Positions 4,116 through 30,333 of a stretch of 64,000 bases of DNA are shown here, piece after piece. The DNA lies in assembly GCA_021203905.1 (NCBI GenBank), contig JAJQAG010000004.1:129939-193938 (forward strand), given 5' to 3'. The notes under the pieces were generated by a model. The model saw only the letters and a list, made by a program, of their open reading frames with translations, was not told the origin of the DNA and did no database searches. The stretch comes from Coprobacillus sp. GTDB lineage: Bacteria > Bacillota_I > Bacilli_A > RFN20 > CAG-826. Position 1 is the first letter of the stretch. Each line of letters begins with the position of its first letter. The position numbers and the translations under genes were made by a program.

Positions 4116-4262
4116 TACTTGGCCTCCTTATTTTAAATTCACTAAGGACTCGCTATGAAGGTCGAGAAGAATCTCAGTTAGTAAACCTTTTCTAGGCGGT
4201 TGTAGCTAGTGAGGCTAAACAACGCTTGATACTATAACATAGTTATAATATGCCCGCAAGAA
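4116..4262 (-). promoter_or_regulatory. rplU operon promoter (TTGCGG-17-TATAGT) plus a ~110-nt structured leader (possible L21-leader-type element)
   Basis: Promoter hexamers read on the minus strand. There is a long untranslated leader ahead of the rplU RBS (AAGGAGG). Confidence 0.35.
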
Positions 4263-14608: not shown

Positions 14609-14685
14609 TGGCGCCCTCGAGGCGACTCGAACGCCTGACCCACAGCTTAGAAGGCTGTTGCTCTATCCAACTGAGCTACGAGGGC
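14609..14685 (-). tRNA. tRNA-Arg (anticodon TCT)
   Basis: Cloverleaf folded by hand: acceptor GCCCTCG/CGAGGGC, D-arm GCTC-AGTTGGATA-GAGC, anticodon loop CTTCTAA, T-arm AGGCG-TTCGAGT-CGCCT, discriminator G, encoded CCA. Confidence 0.85.
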
Positions 14686-21148: not shown

Positions 21149-22063
21149 TTAGTCACTGTTAAAAGGTTCGAGTGAATCGAGAATATTTTTAAAATATTCT
21201 GGGAGAGGACTATTAAAGGTCATCTCTTCTTTTGTAGTGGGATGAACAAGGGTTAACTGGTAGGCATGAAGCATCTGTCCATTGGGGCTGAGAGGTTTAA
21301 CATTCTTTTCACCATATAAAGGATCACTTTCAATGGGATAACCAAGATAGGCAAGGTGCACTCTAATCTGGTGAGTACGGCCGGTCTCTAGATCACATTT
21401 AATAAGGGTGTGACTCTTATATCTTTTAACCACTTCAAAGTAGGTCACCGCGCTTTTACCCCCTCTGACCACCGCTTGTTTCATGGGATACTTTTTATCT
21501 TTATCAATGGGTAAATCAATCTTCGCTTTATTCTCCTTAATGTTTCCTCTCACCAGAGCATAGTAACTTCTTCTCATCGTGTGATCTTCAAGTTGCTGTG
21601 AAAGAAAGGCATGAGCATAGTCATTCTTCGCCACACAGACGAGTCCAGAGGTATCTTTATCGATGCGGTGGACAATCCCAGGACGAAGATCCCCGTTTAA
21701 AGTGGAGAGTTGAGCGAAATGATAGGCAAGAGCATTGGCCATGGTGTGGGTCTCATTACTGATTCCAGGGTGCACTACCATACCCTGAGGTTTATCCACA
21801 ATGATAATGTCATCATCCTCATAGACAATATTAAGGGGAATATCTTCTTTAAGAAGAGTGACTTCTTTCTCGACCTCTTCCACACTGATTTCATCATCAA
21901 GTTTAGTGATATAAGAAGGTTTGACTTTAGTGTCATTAACTAACACTCCCCCTTCTTTAATAAGTGTGGCAATACTACTTCTGGACATATTAGGAAAAGA
22001 TAAGGCCAAGGCCTTATCAATTCTCATATCTTTAAGGTAATCGTCAACTTTTACTCTTTCCAC
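21149..22063 (-). CDS. rluD: 23S rRNA pseudouridine synthase, RluD/RluA family
   Basis: 304 aa with an S4 domain and the catalytic motif HRIDKDTSGL. Confidence 0.92.
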   Translation of the reverse strand: MERVKVDDYLKDMRIDKALALSFPNMSRSSIATLIKEGGVLVNDTKVKPSYITKLDDEISVEEVEKEVTLLKEDIPLNIVYEDDDIIIVDKPQGMVVHPGISNETHTMANALAYHFAQLSTLNGDLRPGIVHRIDKDTSGLVCVAKNDYAHAFLSQQLEDHTMRRSYYALVRGNIKENKAKIDLPIDKDKKYPMKQAVVRGGKSAVTYFEVVKRYKSHTLIKCDLETGRTHQIRVHLAYLGYPIESDPLYGEKNVKPLSPNGQMLHAYQLTLVHPTTKEEMTFNSPLPEYFKNILDSLEPFNSD

Positions 22064-22886
22064 GAGAGGTCTTCTCCTCTATGGTTTCTTTAGTTGGGGT
22101 CTCTACGGGGGCGACTACAACGTCCTCAACCTTTTCTTCTTCTTTTGGATTTGTGGATTCCTCTCCATGTATTAAAGCGTCCATCTGAGCTTGATGAAGC
22201 GCCACTTCGCTCTTAGCTTTCTCTTCTTTCTCTTTCTTACTTTGTTTTCCGTCCCAGACAAAGAGCCAAATGATAAGCATAATCACTCCGACGACTAAGC
22301 AGGCATCCGCCCAGTTAAAAGTGGGGAACTCATAATTTCCAAAGTGGAAAGCAATCCAATCAATCACTCCACGAGTGCTCCCACTGACACCTAAATAGGA
22401 GGAAGTATAGAAGGCTCGATCAATCAGGTTTCCAATACAGCCCGCAAGAATAATCATGCAACAAGCTCTCGCAAATTTGGGAATCTTTTTATATTTGACT
22501 GCAAAAACAGTAATGATTACTACTGCGGCAATAACACTAATACCAACAAAAACAATGATATTTGCAGTGTAATTACCAGTATCTATTCCAAAAGCCATCC
22601 CATCATTGATGACATATTTTACCCCAAGGAAGTTATTAATAAGCCAGATCTCTTCGCCTTCACTGCTATAGTAGTAAGGAACATAGTCCTTAATTAAAGT
22701 TTTGGTGACGATATCGATAATAAACATCAAAACGAAGAGCCAAATAAAAGACTCGAAGATCCACTTCCAAGTAGCATCCCATTTAGGATGTTTCTTGACA
22801 GTAGCGGTTACTTCTTGTTCGGAAACCTGTGCGCTCTCTACGGGTGTGGTTTCAATAGGAGTTTCTTCCTTGACTTTCTTTGGCAT
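22044..22886 (-). CDS. lspA: lipoprotein signal peptidase II with N- and C-terminal extensions
   Basis: LspA core (NxGxAFG-like, GNLIDR) flanked by a K/E-rich tail and an acidic N-terminal extension. I moved the start to the Met with GGAG 9 nt upstream whose ATG overlaps the ileS stop as TAATG; the track start is 22922. Confidence 0.8.
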   Translation of the reverse strand: MPKKVKEETPIETTPVESAQVSEQEVTATVKKHPKWDATWKWIFESFIWLFVLMFIIDIVTKTLIKDYVPYYYSSEGEEIWLINNFLGVKYVINDGMAFGIDTGNYTANIIVFVGISVIAAVVIITVFAVKYKKIPKFARACCMIILAGCIGNLIDRAFYTSSYLGVSGSTRGVIDWIAFHFGNYEFPTFNWADACLVVGVIMLIIWLFVWDGKQSKKEKEEKAKSEVALHQAQMDALIHGEESTNPKEEEKVEDVVVAPVETPTKETIEEKTSRGKSKS

Positions 22887-25621
22887 TACTTTTTCTCCAT
22901 GAGATGATGACATCTTGGGCAAAGATATGAATCTTTCTCTACCTCTATGGCGTCATAATCATAGTTCCAACATCTCTCACAATAGTGTCCACTATGACGA
23001 TGGACATCAATGATTGAGTGGTTATATTCATCTCCTTTAATTTCTTCTTTATAGATATTAAATCCGGAGACGACAAAGAGATTCTTTAAATCTTCTTTGT
23101 TTATTTTATCAAATAAGTGGGAAATATTTACATCTTTTATGAAAATATTTACTTCCGCTTCTTGACTAGAACCAATAGTTCCTTTTTCTCTCTCCACTTC
23201 AAGTGCCTTTAAGACTTCACTTCTTAAAGCCTTAAAGAGTTCGTATTCCAAGAGAAGAGCGTCATCCACTTCCCCCTCTTTTGGAAAGTCGAGCAATTGG
23301 ACATATTCCTCTCTTTTCCCAGGAAGATTCTTATTAAATTCGTCCATGGTGAAAGGAAGAATAGGATTAAGTAATCTTAAGATAGATTCTGAGACGAGAT
23401 ACATCACTGATTGCATCTGGTTCCTTCTCTTTGAATCTTTTTCATCACAATATAAAGTGTCTTTAGCAATATCTAGATAGAAGGAAGATAAATCACTAGA
23501 AAGGAAAGTCGTAATATAACTCATTCCGTTCGCGTAGTTATATTCATCAAAACTCTTTCTCACTTCTCTCTCGACATAGTGTAAACGATTAAGGATATAG
23601 GTATCCACAAGGGTAAAATCACTAGTAGTATTCTTGGGATCAAAGTCCACAAGATTCCACGACATAAACTTTAAAGTATTACGGATTTTACGATAGACTT
23701 CACTTACTTGTTTAATGATATCTTCACTCATTCTCACATCGCTTTGATAGTCGATTGTCCCGCAGTAAAGACGAACGACATCGCTACCATACATATCTAT
23801 CACTTTAAGTGGGTCAGTACCATTACCTTTAGACTTAGACATCTTCTCCCATTTTTCATCCATGATAAACCCATGGGTGACCACGGCATCATAGGGGGCG
23901 TGACCATAGACTGCGGTCGAGATAATAAGGGAAGAATTAAACCATCCACGATACTGATCGCTCCCTTCTAAGTAGAGATTTGCGGGGAAATTTAAACCTT
24001 TATCGACGATATTGTACATAAAGGAAGAACCACTATCAAACCACACATCCATGATATCGACTTCCTTAGTAAATATCCCGTGGGGAGAATGAGAATTTTT
24101 ATAGCCTTTAGGGAGTAAATCTATCGGGTCTTTTTCATACCATACATTTGACCCATTTTCTCTCACTAATTTAATAATATTATCAAAGACTTCTTTCTCA
24201 ATAATGGGAGTCTTATCTTCACAGTAAATAATGGGGATAGGAACACCCCACGCTCTCTGACGAGAGATACACCAATCGCTACGATCTTTAATCATATTGA
24301 CCATTCTTACTTCTCCCCAACTTGGGTACCATTTTACCTTATGAATTTCATTTAGAAGCTTCTCTCTAATGGGTTCAATTGAGCAGAACCATTGATCCGT
24401 CGCTCTAAAGATTAAAGGTTTATTAGTTCGCCAATCATGAGGATAGGAGTGAATAAAGGTTTCATGTTTTAAAAGATGTTGATTCTTCGCGAGAATATCA
24501 AGAACGACATCATTTCCTTTCTCGTAGAATAAACCACTTAACTCTGCTCCGACACTCTCATCAAAATATCCCTTCTCATCCACTGGGCAATAAGGTTCAA
24601 TCCCATATTTTTGACAGACAATAAAATCATCCACACCATGTCCACCAGCGGTATGGACAAATCCCGTTCCAGCGTCATCGGTAACATGAGTTCCAAGAAT
24701 AATGGGAACTACTCTCTCATAGAAAGGATGAGAACATTTAACAAGTTCCACTTCTTTTCCCTTAAATTCCCGAATGAGTTTCACATCTTTAAGATTAAGT
24801 TCATTCACTAATTTATCTTTTAGAGAAGTAAGGAAGGCTAAGTTTCCTCTGTTTGTACAATACACTCCATAAGTAAAATCTGGATGAGCGGATATCGCCA
24901 TATTTGCAGGTAAGGTCCATGGGGTGGTGGTCCAAATAACCACTTGATCACCTTTGTTTAAGATGCCATTTCCTTCAATGACATCAAAGGCCACATAGAT
25001 AGAGTGGCTTTCAACATCTTTATATTCAATCTCTGCTTCTGCTAAAGCGCTTTCACTACTCGGGGACCAATAGACAGGCTTAAGGCCTTTATAGATAAGA
25101 CCATCAAGCGCCATCTTGGCGAAACACTCTAGCTGGCTAGCTTCGTATTCTTTTAAAAGGGTGAGATAAGGTTTCTTAAAATCTCCCACGACTCCTAAAC
25201 GTTGGATTTCTTCTTTTTGTCTTTCCACTTGCTCCAAAGCATAGTCTTTACATTGGTCACGGAACTGGACAATAGGTGTGGTCTTTCGATTGATTCCCAT
25301 CGCTGTGACTTTATTTTCAATAGGGAGACCATGGGTATCCCAACCAAAGACAAAGGGTGTTTGATAACCACACATATTCTTATAACGGATGGTGATATCT
25401 TTAAGCACTCGATTAAGCATATGCCCACAGTGCATATCTCCGTTAGCGTAGGGCGGTCCATCATGGAGAGTGTACTCTGGACACTCTTTTCTTTTCTCCA
25501 TCATTAAAGAGTAGAGATCCTCATCTAACCACTTCTTGATAAGAACTGGTTCTTTAGAAGGGAGGTTTCCTCTCATCTCAAAATTACTTTTATTCATCAG
25601 TAAGGTGTCTTTATAATCCAT
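22886..25621 (-). CDS. ileS: isoleucyl-tRNA synthetase
   Basis: 911 aa with HIGH (PYANGDMHCGH), KMSKS and a C-terminal zinc cluster (CERC..CPRC). Confidence 0.97.
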   Translation of the reverse strand: MDYKDTLLMNKSNFEMRGNLPSKEPVLIKKWLDEDLYSLMMEKRKECPEYTLHDGPPYANGDMHCGHMLNRVLKDITIRYKNMCGYQTPFVFGWDTHGLPIENKVTAMGINRKTTPIVQFRDQCKDYALEQVERQKEEIQRLGVVGDFKKPYLTLLKEYEASQLECFAKMALDGLIYKGLKPVYWSPSSESALAEAEIEYKDVESHSIYVAFDVIEGNGILNKGDQVVIWTTTPWTLPANMAISAHPDFTYGVYCTNRGNLAFLTSLKDKLVNELNLKDVKLIREFKGKEVELVKCSHPFYERVVPIILGTHVTDDAGTGFVHTAGGHGVDDFIVCQKYGIEPYCPVDEKGYFDESVGAELSGLFYEKGNDVVLDILAKNQHLLKHETFIHSYPHDWRTNKPLIFRATDQWFCSIEPIREKLLNEIHKVKWYPSWGEVRMVNMIKDRSDWCISRQRAWGVPIPIIYCEDKTPIIEKEVFDNIIKLVRENGSNVWYEKDPIDLLPKGYKNSHSPHGIFTKEVDIMDVWFDSGSSFMYNIVDKGLNFPANLYLEGSDQYRGWFNSSLIISTAVYGHAPYDAVVTHGFIMDEKWEKMSKSKGNGTDPLKVIDMYGSDVVRLYCGTIDYQSDVRMSEDIIKQVSEVYRKIRNTLKFMSWNLVDFDPKNTTSDFTLVDTYILNRLHYVEREVRKSFDEYNYANGMSYITTFLSSDLSSFYLDIAKDTLYCDEKDSKRRNQMQSVMYLVSESILRLLNPILPFTMDEFNKNLPGKREEYVQLLDFPKEGEVDDALLLEYELFKALRSEVLKALEVEREKGTIGSSQEAEVNIFIKDVNISHLFDKINKEDLKNLFVVSGFNIYKEEIKGDEYNHSIIDVHRHSGHYCERCWNYDYDAIEVEKDSYLCPRCHHLMEKK

Positions 25622-25860
25622 ACTCTCTCCTTAAAAAGAAATAAAAAGCATCCATATCTAAGGACGCTTTCGCGCGGTACCACCTTAGTTCTAGAGAACC
25701 CTCTCTAGCGCTTCATTAGCCTAATAACGTTTAGAAAACGGAGACTTACTCTTAGTTCAGTACTCATAAGAAGGAGTGATATCTATACATCTCTTTCTTG
25801 TTGACCTTTCCATCCACTGCCAACTCGCTGTAAGGGGGTGATATATAAACTTGTCTCCTA
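25622..25860 (-). promoter_or_regulatory. T-box riboswitch leader of ileS
   Basis: The minus strand reads AACTAAGGTGGTACCGCGCG (T-box), then a terminator hairpin and a U-run upstream of the ileS RBS. Confidence 0.8.
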
Positions 25861-25990
25861 ATTGCTTACTAACAAGCAAGATTATTATAGAAATAAAGTT
25901 TCTATAACGCAAGGAAGTTTATAAATAGTATTAGACAGACTATGCTCTAATATCGATAAGTATGTTCCACTTTTAAGCAACTATTTTGCA

Positions 25991-26392
25991 GTGGCAACCC
26001 CAGATTACAGAACTTATCAAGATATGAACGATAATGTAATCCGTTACAACACTTACAGGAATCGATGGATTGGTGCGTATCTACAAGAACGGGGAATCAA
26101 AGTCATTCCAACCATTGGGTGGGGTAGTAAGCAAACCTTTAAGTATGCCTTTTCCGGGGTGGAAAAAGGAAGTGTCGTGATTGTCTCCACAATTGGTTGC
26201 CAAAAAGTTAAGAAAGATTTTATAAGGGGGTATAACAAGATGCGAAAAGTTATTAAACCATCGATAGTTATCGTTTATGGGAAACTAATCCCAGGAATAA
26301 AAGGCAAAATCATAAATTTTGCTTATGAAGACGCATTTTTAGGACATGATATATCCAATCATATCGAAAATATCAAAAAGGGGGTAAAATAA
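25991..26392 (+). CDS. hypothetical protein A (133 aa) with a GTG start and no obvious RBS; may be the C-terminal remnant of a larger protein
   Basis: First gene of the opposite-strand cassette. The motif IPTIGWGSKQTFKYAFSGVEKGSVVIVSTIG is not assignable to a family from sequence alone. Confidence 0.4.
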   Translation: MATPDYRTYQDMNDNVIRYNTYRNRWIGAYLQERGIKVIPTIGWGSKQTFKYAFSGVEKGSVVIVSTIGCQKVKKDFIRGYNKMRKVIKPSIVIVYGKLIPGIKGKIINFAYEDAFLGHDISNHIENIKKGVK

Positions 26393-26394
26393 AC

Positions 26395-26805
26395 ATGGGT
26401 GGACGAGGAGCATTTGCCGATTCTAACAATCAAAATTTCACCTTTGTTGAAGGTGGCCAAACTTACCGAACAATTAAAAAATATAAAGGGTTTGAAACAA
26501 TCGAAAAAATTGATCAAACCAAAAATACTGCTATCCCTTTTTATTCCCATTCTGGAAGCAACATATATGTAGTAGTCCAACAGAATAAGATTAAAAATAT
26601 AACAGTGTACGGAGAAAACCACAATGTAGTTACAAGTATTGATTTTTACAAAAAGCACCACGGAGTGATTCCCCATACGCATCCTCATGGGATTCATACA
26701 AATGATGGACCCGGAATCCCACCAACAGAAGAAGAATGGAAGTTGATACGATACATCAAAAAGAAAACGAGGTTAAAATGTTTCAATGATCAAAGCACCA
26801 ATTAA
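26395..26805 (+). CDS. hypothetical protein B (136 aa), His-rich HTHPHGIH motif
   Basis: Good RBS (AAGGGGG), Gly-rich N-terminus (MGGRGAF); its 3' end overlaps ORF C by 20 nt. Confidence 0.5.
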   Translation: MGGRGAFADSNNQNFTFVEGGQTYRTIKKYKGFETIEKIDQTKNTAIPFYSHSGSNIYVVVQQNKIKNITVYGENHNVVTSIDFYKKHHGVIPHTHPHGIHTNDGPGIPPTEEEWKLIRYIKKKTRLKCFNDQSTN

Positions 26806-27283
26806 TTATTATGGCGAATGCAAATCAATTAATATCTTCTATGACTACTACTATCCACTAAAGAGTGTTGAAGATTTTTGCAATGTCTGCATGGTTTTTG
26901 AGTACGATGGTGTCCTCTATCTTCTAGATGAGGAGATGGTGGATCCAGACATATTTCCTAACAATAAAAATGACGGATGCGATTACTCCATGAGAAGAAT
27001 CTACCGCTTGAAGTTACAAGACGACGGAACTTACCAAAGAACTTTACTTGCTACATATAGAACACTAGCAAAAGTCCTCACGGAATGGAAAGTAGACGGT
27101 GTCCCCTTAGAATCCATGTTTGGAATGGACAATATGAGAGTAATCGAAATGTATTCTCGAGAGTATCGAGAAGAAAACACACTAAACTTTAAAGAATATG
27201 CCGAGAGGTATAAGAGAAATAATGAACCAAACGACAAAAAGACCAAAAAACACAAAAAGAAATGGTGGGAAAAATTGCGATGA
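26786..27283 (+). CDS. hypothetical Tyr/Asp-rich protein C (165 aa), paralog of D
   Basis: Shares the pattern FY..YY..P..D..F.Y.G..Y..EE..DFPN..DG.DY..R..Y.L..DG with ORF D; K-rich C-terminus. Confidence 0.5.
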   Translation: MIKAPINYYGECKSINIFYDYYYPLKSVEDFCNVCMVFEYDGVLYLLDEEMVDPDIFPNNKNDGCDYSMRRIYRLKLQDDGTYQRTLLATYRTLAKVLTEWKVDGVPLESMFGMDNMRVIEMYSREYREENTLNFKEYAERYKRNNEPNDKKTKKHKKKWWEKLR

Positions 27284-27663
27284 CAGACAATCACTTTGAT
27301 TCACTAGATGAATTCTACAATTTATACTATGAACGCCGCCCTTATCCTGGACCCGATTACATGGATATGGATTTCTATTACAAAGGAAAGTTTTATTGGT
27401 ACATGGAAGAAGGCATCATGAGAGAAGATTTTCCAAATTTATACCACGATGGGGGAGATTATGCCGTTAGAATTGCTTATGAATTGATACCAGAAGATGG
27501 GAAGCCGATGTCGAAAGAAAAGTACGATTTTACAAAGTGCAAGTGTATATTATTAGGAAAATATCGCTTGATGGAGGATATTCTCAATGATTGGATAATC
27601 GATGGGAAGCCATTTAAAGATGTCCTCATTGATAAAGAGACACATATTTACGATATTAGATAG
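27280..27663 (+). CDS. hypothetical Tyr/Asp-rich protein D (~127 aa), paralog of C
   Basis: Start probably at the internal Met (MTDNHF), which has GGTGGGA upstream; the track start is 27262. Ends at a bidirectional terminator. Confidence 0.5.
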   Translation: MTDNHFDSLDEFYNLYYERRPYPGPDYMDMDFYYKGKFYWYMEEGIMREDFPNLYHDGGDYAVRIAYELIPEDGKPMSKEKYDFTKCKCILLGKYRLMEDILNDWIIDGKPFKDVLIDKETHIYDIR

Positions 27664-27671
27664 TTCCTATT

Positions 27672-27705
27672 AAAAAAAAAGGTGGCTGGGCCACCTTTTA
27701 TTTAT
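27672..27705. terminator. bidirectional rho-independent terminator
   Basis: A9-GGTGGC-TGG-GCCACC-T-run. Serves ftsZ on the minus strand and the cassette on the plus strand. Confidence 0.7.
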
Positions 27706-28808
27706 TGTTTCAAGAAAGAGGGGAGAATGTTAGATTTATCTAACTCCTCCTTCTCTTCACTCTTTTCTGGCTCACTCTCTTCAATGGGAGCCTCCTCAAT
27801 AGTAGGACGAGTAATTGGATCCACAAGCAAGGGTTGAGAGAAATCCATCTCTTGTTCAAAGTCCGCGGCAATGACACTGACGATGATTTCATCATCGAGT
27901 TGATCATTAATGCTCACTCCAAACTTGATATCAATATCTCTTCCCGCGGCTTCGATAAGATATCTCACCGTATCTTGAGCATCAAAGAGAGAGACATTAG
28001 TGCCACAAGTCACAGAGACAATGGCGCGTCTTGCTCCAGCAACACTGGCTTCTAGTAAAGGAGAGGAGATGGCGCTTAAAGCGGCGTCTTTTGCCCGATT
28101 AGGTCCTTTTCCATAACCACTACCAATGAGTCCCACTCCAGAATGTTGAAGGGTATTTCTCACATCCGCAAAATCGAGGTTGATAACTGCGGGGAGTAAG
28201 ATGAGATTCACCACTGTCTTCACAGATTGCGATAAGACTTTATCGCTTTCCGCAAAAGCACTAGGAATAGGAATTGTTCCCACATTTCTAAGGAGTTGAT
28301 CGTTAGAGACGACAATAATTGAGTCGACATTTTCTTTAAGTTTATTTAAGCCATCGATGGAGTTATTGATCCTTGTCTGTCCCTCAAAGGTAAAAGGACG
28401 AGTGACAATGGCCACGACTAGCGCACCTGCATCTTTCGCGATACGAGCGACCACCGGAGCGGCGCCTGTACCAGTGCCACCACCCATACCGGCAGCGATA
28501 AAGACAAGATCCGCACCATTAACCATCTCTCTAATGGCGTCAGCGCTCTCTTCTGCGGCTTTTTCTCCGACTTCAGGAACACCCCCGGCTCCTAAGCCTC
28601 CCGTCGTGTTCTCTCCTAAAACTGTCCTATTTGATGCTTTAGAAGAGGAGAGAGCTTGTTTATCAGTATTCAAAACATAGAAGGTGACATTAGCAATTTC
28701 ATCATCAATCATACGATTGACAGCATTGCTTCCTGCTCCCCCCACACCAATGACGACAATTTTGCATGCGGGTTCAAAATTATCTAAGTCATAGTTCCCA
28801 CTAGCCAT
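27702..28808 (-). CDS. ftsZ: cell division protein FtsZ
   Basis: Tubulin signature GGGTGTG with a GVGGAGSNAV N-terminus. The start is probably the Met of MASGNYDL; the track start at 28874 runs into ftsA. Confidence 0.93.
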   Translation of the reverse strand: MASGNYDLDNFEPACKIVVIGVGGAGSNAVNRMIDDEIANVTFYVLNTDKQALSSSKASNRTVLGENTTGGLGAGGVPEVGEKAAEESADAIREMVNGADLVFIAAGMGGGTGTGAAPVVARIAKDAGALVVAIVTRPFTFEGQTRINNSIDGLNKLKENVDSIIVVSNDQLLRNVGTIPIPSAFAESDKVLSQSVKTVVNLILLPAVINLDFADVRNTLQHSGVGLIGSGYGKGPNRAKDAALSAISSPLLEASVAGARRAIVSVTCGTNVSLFDAQDTVRYLIEAAGRDIDIKFGVSINDQLDDEIIVSVIAADFEQEMDFSQPLLVDPITRPTIEEAPIEESEPEKSEEKEELDKSNILPSFLKQ

Positions 28809-30030
28809 TGTTACGACCTCCTTTAGAAGATGTACGTGTTCCAGTAGGATTGGCTGCTGGACGAGTATCTTCATAAATATTCTTATATTTAGAGTTTGTT
28901 AAAACTGCTCCTAAGACATTGTAGAGATTGGGTTTTCTCGCTCCTAAACTCGTGGGTACGGGAGTGGTGATATTCTTTGAACTCACTATCGGAGAGAGAT
29001 AGGAGACGAGTCCATTAAGACGGGCTCCACCCCCGATTAAGACCATCGGGAGAGAGCGGTAAAAGTCTTTCTCTTCCTCTTCATAACCCGCGAGTAAGAC
29101 ATCTATCGTCGTATTGAGATGATTGATGAAGGTTTCAAGTTCTTCTTTGACAAGATCATTTAGTTCAGAAGCATAACAGACCTTCCCCTCTTCGCTTGTA
29201 TAGATGGGAACTTGGAAACGCATTTGCTTCTTATCATAGCCATAGAGACATTTAAGCTCTTCGGCTTTTTCCATAGAAACACTAAGATGATGAGCGATAT
29301 GTCTCGTAATACTATTCCCACCCCAGGCAAACTGTTGAGAGGAATATAGCACTCCATCGCCAATAAGAGAAACAGTAGTCATCTCTCCACCGATATCCAC
29401 TAAGAAGTAAGCACTAGGGGTTGTGGGTTGAGTAGCGAGTAGTTCGCAAGCGGCAAAAGGTGCCACTACCATTCGAGAGATAGATAATCCCGCTTCAAGA
29501 ACCGCTCTACGATAACTATCAATAAGAGGGATGGGGAGAGTGTGAAGTTTCGCTCGCATGGTTAGTCCCGTAGAAACTAAACCAATAGGAGGGGTTATAT
29601 ACTCCTTCCCATCATCGACAATGAAGGTGTCAGGGATAATATCCACACAATCATTATTGAGTTCCGCCGGAAATTTATCTTTTCTAATCAAAGCGTATAA
29701 GTTCTTAATATCTATCGTATCGATTCTTCCTTCTGGAGAGACAATCGTCGTGAACTTATCATTGTTAAAGACCACAAGACCATTAGGAGGAAGCACTAAG
29801 ATAACCTCTTGAACGAGGACCGAGATCTTTGCATCAGGATCTTCAAACTTGGTTAAAGAACTAATCTCTTTGACAAGTTTGGCTTTATCAACGATGGAAC
29901 CATTCTCGATGACACCAGAAAGAGGTTTCTCCTTCACATAGATAACATACACTTGTCCTTCATTTTCAAAACCTTCAAGAAGTTTGAGAGATGAATCCGA
30001 AATTTCAAGAACAAAGACAGGTTTTTTCAT
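28801..30030 (-). CDS. ftsA: cell division protein FtsA
   Basis: 409-aa actin-like ATPase fold (DIGGEMTTVSL, VLIGGGARL). Confidence 0.85.
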   Translation of the reverse strand: MKKPVFVLEISDSSLKLLEGFENEGQVYVIYVKEKPLSGVIENGSIVDKAKLVKEISSLTKFEDPDAKISVLVQEVILVLPPNGLVVFNNDKFTTIVSPEGRIDTIDIKNLYALIRKDKFPAELNNDCVDIIPDTFIVDDGKEYITPPIGLVSTGLTMRAKLHTLPIPLIDSYRRAVLEAGLSISRMVVAPFAACELLATQPTTPSAYFLVDIGGEMTTVSLIGDGVLYSSQQFAWGGNSITRHIAHHLSVSMEKAEELKCLYGYDKKQMRFQVPIYTSEEGKVCYASELNDLVKEELETFINHLNTTIDVLLAGYEEEEKDFYRSLPMVLIGGGARLNGLVSYLSPIVSSKNITTPVPTSLGARKPNLYNVLGAVLTNSKYKNIYEDTRPAANPTGTRTSSKGGRNNG

Positions 30031-30333
30031 ACTGCTATTTTATAACTTTCGACTAATATTATACAAGAAATTAGTAAAATCATAAAATATAATTTTATAG
30101 TCTACTAAATATCTACTATTTTTCAACTTTTAAAAGTGGTCAGGCCCCACACTACTACGATGATCGAAACAAAAGAAAAACCCCATACATAAGGGGGATA
30201 GTACGGGGTTAGAGGCAGGAAGACACCTGTCTTAAGGAGGTTATATTATAACAACATTTCTGTCGATATAATTAACTTACATTACCAGTATTTTAACATT
30301 GATATTTTATCTCGTCAATACCTAAAAATAACC

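Follow-up and report, generated by a model that had tools for sequence, protein, structure and literature searches.

A phage-derived DUF4417-B-C cassette, truncated by deletion, between ileS and ftsZ of a Coprobacillus genome and the putative toxin-antidote pair that it carries

Pairs of a helix-turn-helix (HTH) repressor and an M78 metallopeptidase, such as CapH/CapP, ImmR/ImmA and DdrO/IrrE, derepress immune operons or mobile elements upon DNA damage (bioRxiv 10.1101/2022.04.27.489752; 10.64898/2026.05.16.725639). Among small toxins, the Ntox24 family has been described as all-beta with a conserved Tyr, His and His, and it occurs in type VII secretion system (T7SS), RHS and MuF toxins as well as in toxin-antitoxin (TA)-like pairs (Zhang et al. 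2012, PMC3482391). Here we describe a locus that shares features with both, a block of four small open reading frames (ORFs A to D) on the plus strand between ileS and ftsZ in a 64,000-nucleotide stretch of a Coprobacillus sp. genome (contig JAJQAG010000004.1, positions 129,939 to 193,938; hereafter the window). It derives by deletion from a mobile, self-contained cassette of phage origin that is found widely among gut and rumen Firmicutes and in which an HTH repressor, accompanied or not by an M78 peptidase, is followed by DUF4417, B and C. Our explanation of the whole, to which we give a probability of about 0.5, is that of a decayed phage-derived cassette in which B would be a toxic effector and C and D its antidotes, the regulator having been lost here.

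A preliminary description of this stretch had noted four closely packed ORFs opposed in strand to the surrounding ftsZ, ileS, lspA and rluD and closed by a bidirectional terminator, and all of these features are present as described (Table 1), with ftsA likewise on the minus strand. It had found no nameable family for any of the four, which is wrong for ORF A: this frame matches Pfam DUF4417 (PF14386), a phage-associated domain of unknown function, at 114.9 bits against a cutoff of 28.9 (E 3.9e-33), and it also matches the PHROGs families phrog_8680 and phrog_940. The match spans profile positions 69-176 of 183, where the gene of a sister species covers 8-175, and a local profile places ORF A at positions 72-220 of 231; what remains is the 3' two-thirds of a DUF4417 gene and not the full-length domain (profile about 1-183). 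As the frame, open from 25925, has no native start codon, ribosome-binding site (RBS) or promoter, ORF A is probably a pseudogene remnant. The suggestion that it was the orphan C-terminal part of a larger protein was thus sound, while its reading as the tip of a toxin was not.

The origin of the truncation is clear from the sister species (FtsZ 96% identical by tblastn, 97% in a codon alignment), which holds the cassette at the same ileS/ftsZ junction. Its locus (L082) consists of an HTH_3/Phage_CI_repr protein (294 aa), DUF4417 (221 aa), B (136 aa), C (162 aa) and D (127 aa). By blastn, window positions 22218-25916 correspond to L082 6-3696 and positions 25931-30099 to L082 5147-9310, such that the two are collinear apart from a clean 1450-bp deletion (L082 3697-5146 is missing). 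With it went the CI/HTH regulator gene, the two candidate promoter regions and ~70 codons (~204 nt) from the start of DUF4417, the 5' third of the gene, and the block in the window is left with neither an HTH nor an M78 regulator.

ORFs A-D are real genes and not chance ORFs, given that orthologs occupy the same junction in the sister species and that dN/dS between the two is low (A remnant 0.055, C 0.087, D 0.045, with 0.03-0.07 for FtsZ, IleS and FtsA of the same species pair). Gene B changes faster than C and D by a factor of 2-3 (dN 0.216 against 0.085-0.103), with dS saturated. Such low ratios between species argue that purifying selection has acted on the cassette genes throughout most of their history and that the deletion is comparatively recent. 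There is no anomaly of composition, the GC content at third codon positions (GC3) being 0.31-0.40 in the cassette and 0.35-0.39 in the flanks, and a recent horizontal acquisition as judged by composition was rejected on this account. Variation within the sister species falls on B: over 6950 bp, the sole difference between two near-clonal assemblies is the loss of one G from the GGG that follows the ATG of B (ATGGGTGGA versus ATGGTGGA), a frameshift at codon 2, and a third assembly carries the identical null allele, which is thus found in two of three assemblies. Either selection against B or an on/off polymorphism would account for it.

That the block is an insert was proposed at the outset and is borne out by 37 more distant relatives (FtsZ 57-79% identical) whose loci hold both ftsZ and ileS. 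No relative of A-D lies at the junction in any of them, including those with other inserts, and the A-D block is a lineage-specific insert. The junction itself had been called conserved, which is right insofar as ftsZ and ileS are directly adjacent in 22 of the 37 (gap 127-327 bp) and wrong if taken as invariant, since the other 15 hold 1-5.7 kb of other genes there. Neither the window nor L082 has an integrase or structural gene in the ileS-ftsZ interval, and a search for att-like repeats flanking the insert returned only short repeats at chance level. As a side observation, the interval has been remodelled repeatedly within the clade by material unrelated to A-D. By the look of the sequences, some relatives have spoIIGA-sigE-sigG and a small SepF-like gene between ftsZ and ileS; nine loci (L005, L007, L008, L011, L012, L016, L017, L020, L026) have a large same-strand lipoprotein of 550-1040 aa with an endonuclease-like region; and three distant relatives have, at the position and in the orientation of the cassette, proteins of 175-180 aa with an N-terminal HTH-like region and C-terminal transmembrane segments.

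Gene B, the putative effector, belongs to a small and divergent family. A full HMMER scan of 1.84 billion cluster representatives gave 64 relatives, and a word-indexed search of 5.8 billion sequences matched only its own ortholog. Almost every one of the 64 stands alone as a protein of about 60-155 aa, and none is fused to a trafficking or secretion domain; the sole large match, P0046 (891 aa), is a beta-helix protein with short repeated matches only, which we regard as spurious, and an origin of B from YD/RHS repeats was rejected. A further protein, P0006, was found only on contigs of ~500 bp, which carry no genomic context. Family members share an MGGRGAF N-terminus, and Tyr58, Tyr72, His88 and His94 are at least 90% conserved across 40 sequences. 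An AlphaFold2 model of B has seven strands and one C-terminal helix, for which we found no solved fold relative, and a PDB sequence search with the B and C/D profiles returned nothing significant. The preliminary description had likened a His cluster in B to JAMM/metal sites; this metalloprotease reading was rejected, having no support from Pfam, NCBIfam or structure. B does show the "all-beta; Y, H, H" signature of Ntox24, a loose signature and as such weak evidence, and against the Ntox24 profile (PF15529) it scores 18.6 bits (E 0.0024), below the Pfam gathering cutoff of 24; among 40 family members, nine reach E<0.01, with 1.4e-4 the lowest value.

C and D are divergent paralogs (29% identity, E 4e-12), as had been recognised earlier, in a family of ~120-aa proteins that comprises 83 clusters and has no Pfam match; Imm50, Imm53 and the other Pfam immunity families likewise failed to match either. 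C matches the local family profile at E 2e-46 and, by hhalign, the gene downstream of B in another locus (L086) with a probability of 81% (E 1.2e-5). It has in addition a Lys-rich C-terminal tail of ~45 aa (window 27131-27283; …KKTKKHKKKWWEKLR), which is kept in the sister species, while the rest of the family ends near …TEILGKD; this tail could bind nucleic acid. Overlaps of ~20 nt had been reported for B/C and C/D alike. For B/C the value is 20 nt; for C/D it is 22 nt if D starts at the first ATG (27262), and a start at 27280 with a 4-nt ATGA overlap is more likely because a GGTGGG Shine-Dalgarno-like motif lies ~10 nt upstream and a 127-aa gene is called in the sister species.

The wider distribution of these families carries much of the argument. 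A metagenome scan with the B alignment confirmed 176 stretches, of which the best 80, representing 36 B clusters at 95% identity, were examined. A C-family gene lies directly after B in 79 of the 80, overlapping it by 4 nt in 75, a figure that describes one clade only because the loci had been picked by similarity to island-type B (38-47% identity). DUF4417 lies directly upstream of B in 73 of the 80, and an HTH protein and M78 peptidase, separate or fused, stand directly upstream in 26 of the 48 loci with at least 1.3 kb of upstream sequence. Regulators of the cassette in relatives match the PADLOC models capH (E 1.7e-13), capP (E 6.5e-9) and, where fused, RmrA (E 4e-40). The cassette is found alone among housekeeping genes (L120, L122, L133), beside serine recombinases (L090), within a prophage head module, inserted on the opposite strand (L108), and directly after type I restriction-modification (R-M) loci, in which the candidate defence pair PDC-M10A/B (DUF3990 and DUF3791) lies between hsdS and hsdR and the DUF4417-B-C triplet directly downstream of hsdR. 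Its composition also varies: B-C occurs without DUF4417 (L119, L136, L141/L144), C occurs on its own (L097-L101 and L110), and one locus (L122, 5001-6555) reads DUF4417-B-C-B-C, a tandem B-C behind a single HTH/M78 regulator pair. Phages carry DUF4417 and B side by side. The two adjoin in all ten phage or island loci first examined; they are A25_22/A25_23 of Streptococcus phage A25, just upstream of TerS, TerL and portal, they precede TerL in Roseburia phage Jekyll, and they lie between portal and MuF in MT837048. C is absent from all eight phage late-operon copies (L085, L087, L092-L096, L113). Separately, we note that MT837061 (L086, 7.8 kb), labelled "Bacteriophage sp." in GenBank, has no phage structural genes and looks like a bacterial chromosomal fragment, with HTH-M78-DUF4417-B-C between what look by sequence like pstS and pstC-pstA-pstB.

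From these observations it is reasonable to postulate the following history and mechanism. The cassette would have entered the ileS/ftsZ junction before the Coprobacillus-like species split from its sister species, and there the partner gene would have been duplicated, yielding C and D; the 1.45-kb deletion later removed regulator, native promoter region and the start of DUF4417 from the present genome and left B, C and D intact. B would be a small toxic effector with a Tyr/His active site, and may be a nuclease of the Ntox24 kind, though a very distant one. C and D would be protein antidotes, translationally coupled to B and neutralising it by binding. An intact cassette would be held low by a repressor of the CapH/CapP or ImmR/ImmA type and released upon DNA damage or phage infection, regulation that would make it an abortive-infection or addiction-type module. 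Phage late operons, with DUF4417 and B only, presumably have no need of an antidote, as the cell is about to die at that stage.

The key argument for C and D as antidotes is this very distribution, in that C is present wherever a cell must live with B and absent from the late operons of phages. Further points agree with the same toxin-antidote relationship: C is translationally coupled to B, the two have been duplicated together, and C is also found by itself; B has null alleles next to C and D that remain intact, and it evolves faster than they do; and the cassettes come with stress-responsive repressors and lie in the neighbourhood of defence islands. The immunity-like character ascribed at first to the two paralogs agrees with how they behave, tied to B in 79 of the 80 loci of that clade, doubled with it in tandem and at times alone; the accompanying suggestion of a compact defence or TA-type module fits the genomic contexts (R-M neighbours, prophage insert, lone cassettes, CapH/CapP-like regulators). 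Several points nonetheless weigh against our explanation. The 79 of 80 comes from a single clade; the family consensus of B reaches 19.1 bits against Ntox24, where the cutoff is 24; and no model of PADLOC-DB 2.0.0 matches A-D or the full-length DUF4417, B and C proteins of L082 and L104. It is also unusual for the late operon of a phage to hold a toxin gene. A toxin with its antidote leaves the tightly linked DUF4417 without an explanation, though this protein may have come with the phage pair as a co-effector; no function is assigned to it in the four papers of the full-text library that mention DUF4417, and a search of the PDB by sequence with its profile gave nothing significant. B, C and D may be silent in this window, where the regulator and the promoter region have been lost and a search ahead of B gave no promoter-like site. 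Last, the toxicity of B, its binding by C and D and any defence activity are inferred from comparison.

Three other explanations merit consideration. DUF4417 and B could together be a phage-derived enzyme acting on DNA or nucleotides, for instance in modification or anti-restriction at the start of packaging, with C serving as a subunit for regulation or specificity; on chromosomes, the cassettes would in that case be modules for modification or exclusion that have been domesticated. The constancy of the pair in phages, where it directly precedes TerS/TerL or stands between portal and MuF, is consistent with such a role, as are the adjacency of the triplets to type I R-M loci, the annotation of phrog_940 as "nuclease", and the frequent fusion of phage DUF4417 to ParB-CTPase/nuclease-type domains, a feature shared with methyltransferases (bioRxiv 10.1101/2025.10.10.680097). 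An enzyme of this kind sits poorly with the repeated persistence of B-C where DUF4417 is missing, this window included, with the presence of C in 79 of 80 chromosomal copies (of the one clade) and none of eight phage copies, and with the duplicated B-C and solitary C genes. The weak hints of a glycosyltransferase (ORF A against the AGT DNA glucosyltransferase, E 0.11; "Glycosyltransferase" as top BFVD match of B, E 3e-3) are not significant, and the DUF4417 profile has no PDB relative by sequence. We consider this explanation unlikely, if well short of negligible. It is also conceivable that the block is a fragment of a dying prophage or mobile element, devoid of present function and too young for its ORFs to have decayed, and the truncated DUF4417, the loss of regulator and promoter region, the frameshifted B of two of three sister-species assemblies and the phage affiliation of B and DUF4417 would all suit this. 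The dN/dS of 0.045-0.087 across a divergence with dS above 1 speaks for long maintenance instead, as does the retention of the cassette at one site in two species with 96% identical FtsZ; an integrase, structural genes and att-like repeats are lacking within the block and next to it, GC3 is that of the flanks, and the same self-contained cassette stands alone among housekeeping genes in many unrelated genomes. A mere remnant is therefore improbable in our estimation.

The toxin/immunity remnant envisaged in the preliminary description, in which the locus would hold the tip of a secreted multidomain polymorphic toxin with an array of immunity genes, is largely refuted in its canonical form and in our view highly improbable. 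It draws on the sub-threshold similarity of B to a family known from T7SS, MuF and RHS toxins, on the resemblance of the small downstream paralogs C and D to an immunity array, and on two phage minor capsid proteins in BFVD whose folds weakly match part of that of B (E 0.04). The 64 homologs of B are, as described above, almost all stand-alone, with the single large match an unrelated protein; the MuF proteins of the phage loci contain no B-like domain; and upstream of B there is no LXG, WXG, RHS or MuF domain and no signal peptide, only the DUF4417 remnant. A small partner does follow B in 79 of the 80 loci examined from that clade, and it matches no known immunity family, its neutralising role being putative.

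If the toxin-antidote explanation is true, the cassette represents a conflict module of three genes that has so far escaped description, is common in the Firmicutes of gut and rumen and links a phage late-gene pair (DUF4417 and B, as in the classic phage A25) with DNA-damage-responsive regulators of the CapH/CapP type and with restriction-modification islands. It would give a first lead to the function of DUF4417, add a toxin fold for which no relative has been solved, and provide a clean natural experiment, the antidote gene being confined to settings in which the cell has to survive. A bolder proposal, which we hold as tentative and on balance doubtful, is that regulator-DUF4417-B-C is a new stress-induced anti-phage system of the abortive-infection type in gut and rumen Firmicutes, recruited from the phage late-gene pair, with B founding a toxin fold that has no solved relative and C a new family of antidotes. 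Were this so, the DUF4417 and B of A25 and similar phages would serve as a weapon of the phage or in the takeover of its host. The copy in the present genome is degraded, and mainly marks how such cassettes lodge and decay within a core cluster of cell-division and translation genes.

As for the surroundings of the block (Table 1), the terminator at its end has five G-C pairs in its stem and T runs on both strands. The T-box leader of ileS matches its Rfam model end to end, yet its 84.4 bits fall below the Rfam gathering score of 93, and a terminator-like hairpin lies near it; the leader bounds the housekeeping side of the insert, and the ileS promoter must therefore fall within about 25873-25916. 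The only Rfam matches in the window above gathering scores are an L21 ribosomal-protein leader (39.7 bits) and one tRNA gene. The mechanical ORF of ftsZ (390 aa) runs 22 codons upstream into ftsA, and the annotation of the sister species (368 aa), together with alignments, indicates a start at 28808 (MASGNYD...). Signal peptidase II usually has roughly 160 aa, and the lspA ORF of 292 aa (275 aa called in the sister species) is far longer, with an N-terminal extension of ~60 aa and a Lys/Glu-rich C-terminal tail.

Table 1. Positions of the features discussed, in the window and in the compared loci (designated L).
Feature	Sequence	Position	Strand	Remarks
ORF A (truncated DUF4417 remnant)	window	25991-26392	+	GTG start, 133 aa
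Gene B	window	26395-26805	+	136 aa, intact; strong RBS AAGGGGG; proposed effector/toxin
Gene C	window	26786-27283	+	165 aa; proposed antidote
Gene D	window	27280-27663, or from 27262	+	127 aa, or 133 aa; paralog of C
Open frame of 5'-truncated DUF4417 gene	window	25925-26392	+	contains ORF A
Deletion junction	window	25917-25930		~12-14 nt of filler replacing 1450 bp of sister species
Bidirectional intrinsic terminator	window	27677-27699		serves cassette (+) and ftsZ (-); 10-bp stem
T-box leader of ileS (left flank)	window	25657-25872	-	Rfam T-box, 84.4 bits, E 7e-19, model 1-219
Terminator-like hairpin near T-box	window	25671-25644
ileS	window	22886-25621	-	housekeeping flank
ftsZ	window	27702-28808 (mechanical ORF to 28874)	-	housekeeping flank
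lspA ORF	window	22044-22922	-	292 aa
L21 leader	window	4135-4211	-	Rfam
tRNA gene	window	14612-14685	-	Rfam
Intact cassette, sister species	L082	3929-6876
Intact cassette	L120	3155-5734
Full DUF4417 gene, sister species	L082	4943-5608		221 aa
B indel site, sister species	L082 versus L001 and L084	5610-5620 versus ~70-80 and ~2164		GGG/GG
PDC-M10A/B pair	L103	1776-2611
PDC-M10A/B pair	L104-L106	784-1712
PDC-M10A/B pair	L151/L153	143-1077
PDC-M10A/B pair	L091	1119-2092
spoIIGA-sigE-sigG-like ftsZ-ileS interval	L027	9210-11785
spoIIGA-sigE-sigG-like ftsZ-ileS interval	L043	9088-11760
spoIIGA-sigE-sigG-like ftsZ-ileS interval	L030	9802-12433
HTH-transmembrane protein beside ileS	L034	13683-14225	opposite to ftsZ	unrelated to A-D
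HTH-transmembrane protein beside ileS	L038	9174-9701	opposite to ftsZ	unrelated to A-D
HTH-transmembrane protein beside ileS	L044	9566-10102	opposite to ftsZ	unrelated to A-D

Set beside the described systems, the cassette resembles each in part. With Ntox24 pairs it shares a small, all-beta protein with conserved Tyr, His and His, a small partner gene immediately downstream and a link to phage head-gene (MuF) neighbourhoods; however, profile matches of 18.6-19.1 bits against a cutoff of 24 do not establish membership, B is never fused to a trafficking domain and is almost always preceded by DUF4417, and its partner is of a new family rather than Imm50 or Imm53. The resemblance to CapH/CapP operons (and those of the ImmR/ImmA and DdrO/IrrE type) lies in the HTH repressor and M78 metallopeptidase that directly precede about half of the cassettes with enough upstream sequence. 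These regulators are co-directional with the operon, whereas those of cyclic oligonucleotide-based anti-phage signalling systems (CBASS) are usually divergent, and DUF4417, B and C belong to no described immune system; in the window the regulator is deleted altogether. The uncharacterised gene pair of phage A25 and its pre-terminase equivalents in other Firmicute siphophages such as Jekyll have the same two families, abutting and in the same order, but the phage copies sit in the late operon upstream of TerS/TerL and are devoid of C, while the chromosomal copies have both C and a regulator of their own. As in type II TA modules, two small genes are translationally coupled (the B/C overlap is 20 nt in the window, and 4 nt in 75 of the 80 loci) and show a patchy, mobile distribution, with copies in defence islands and as prophage inserts, a putative antidote that is also found solitary and a putative toxin with null alleles. 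Unlike in those modules, the gene of the putative antidote follows that of the putative toxin and encodes no DNA-binding domain that can be recognised, autoregulation seems to have passed to a separate HTH(/peptidase) gene, and there is a third conserved gene, DUF4417. The closest known kind is that of regulated toxin-antidote or defence cassettes, among which DUF4417, B and C are three core genes hitherto undescribed as a system.

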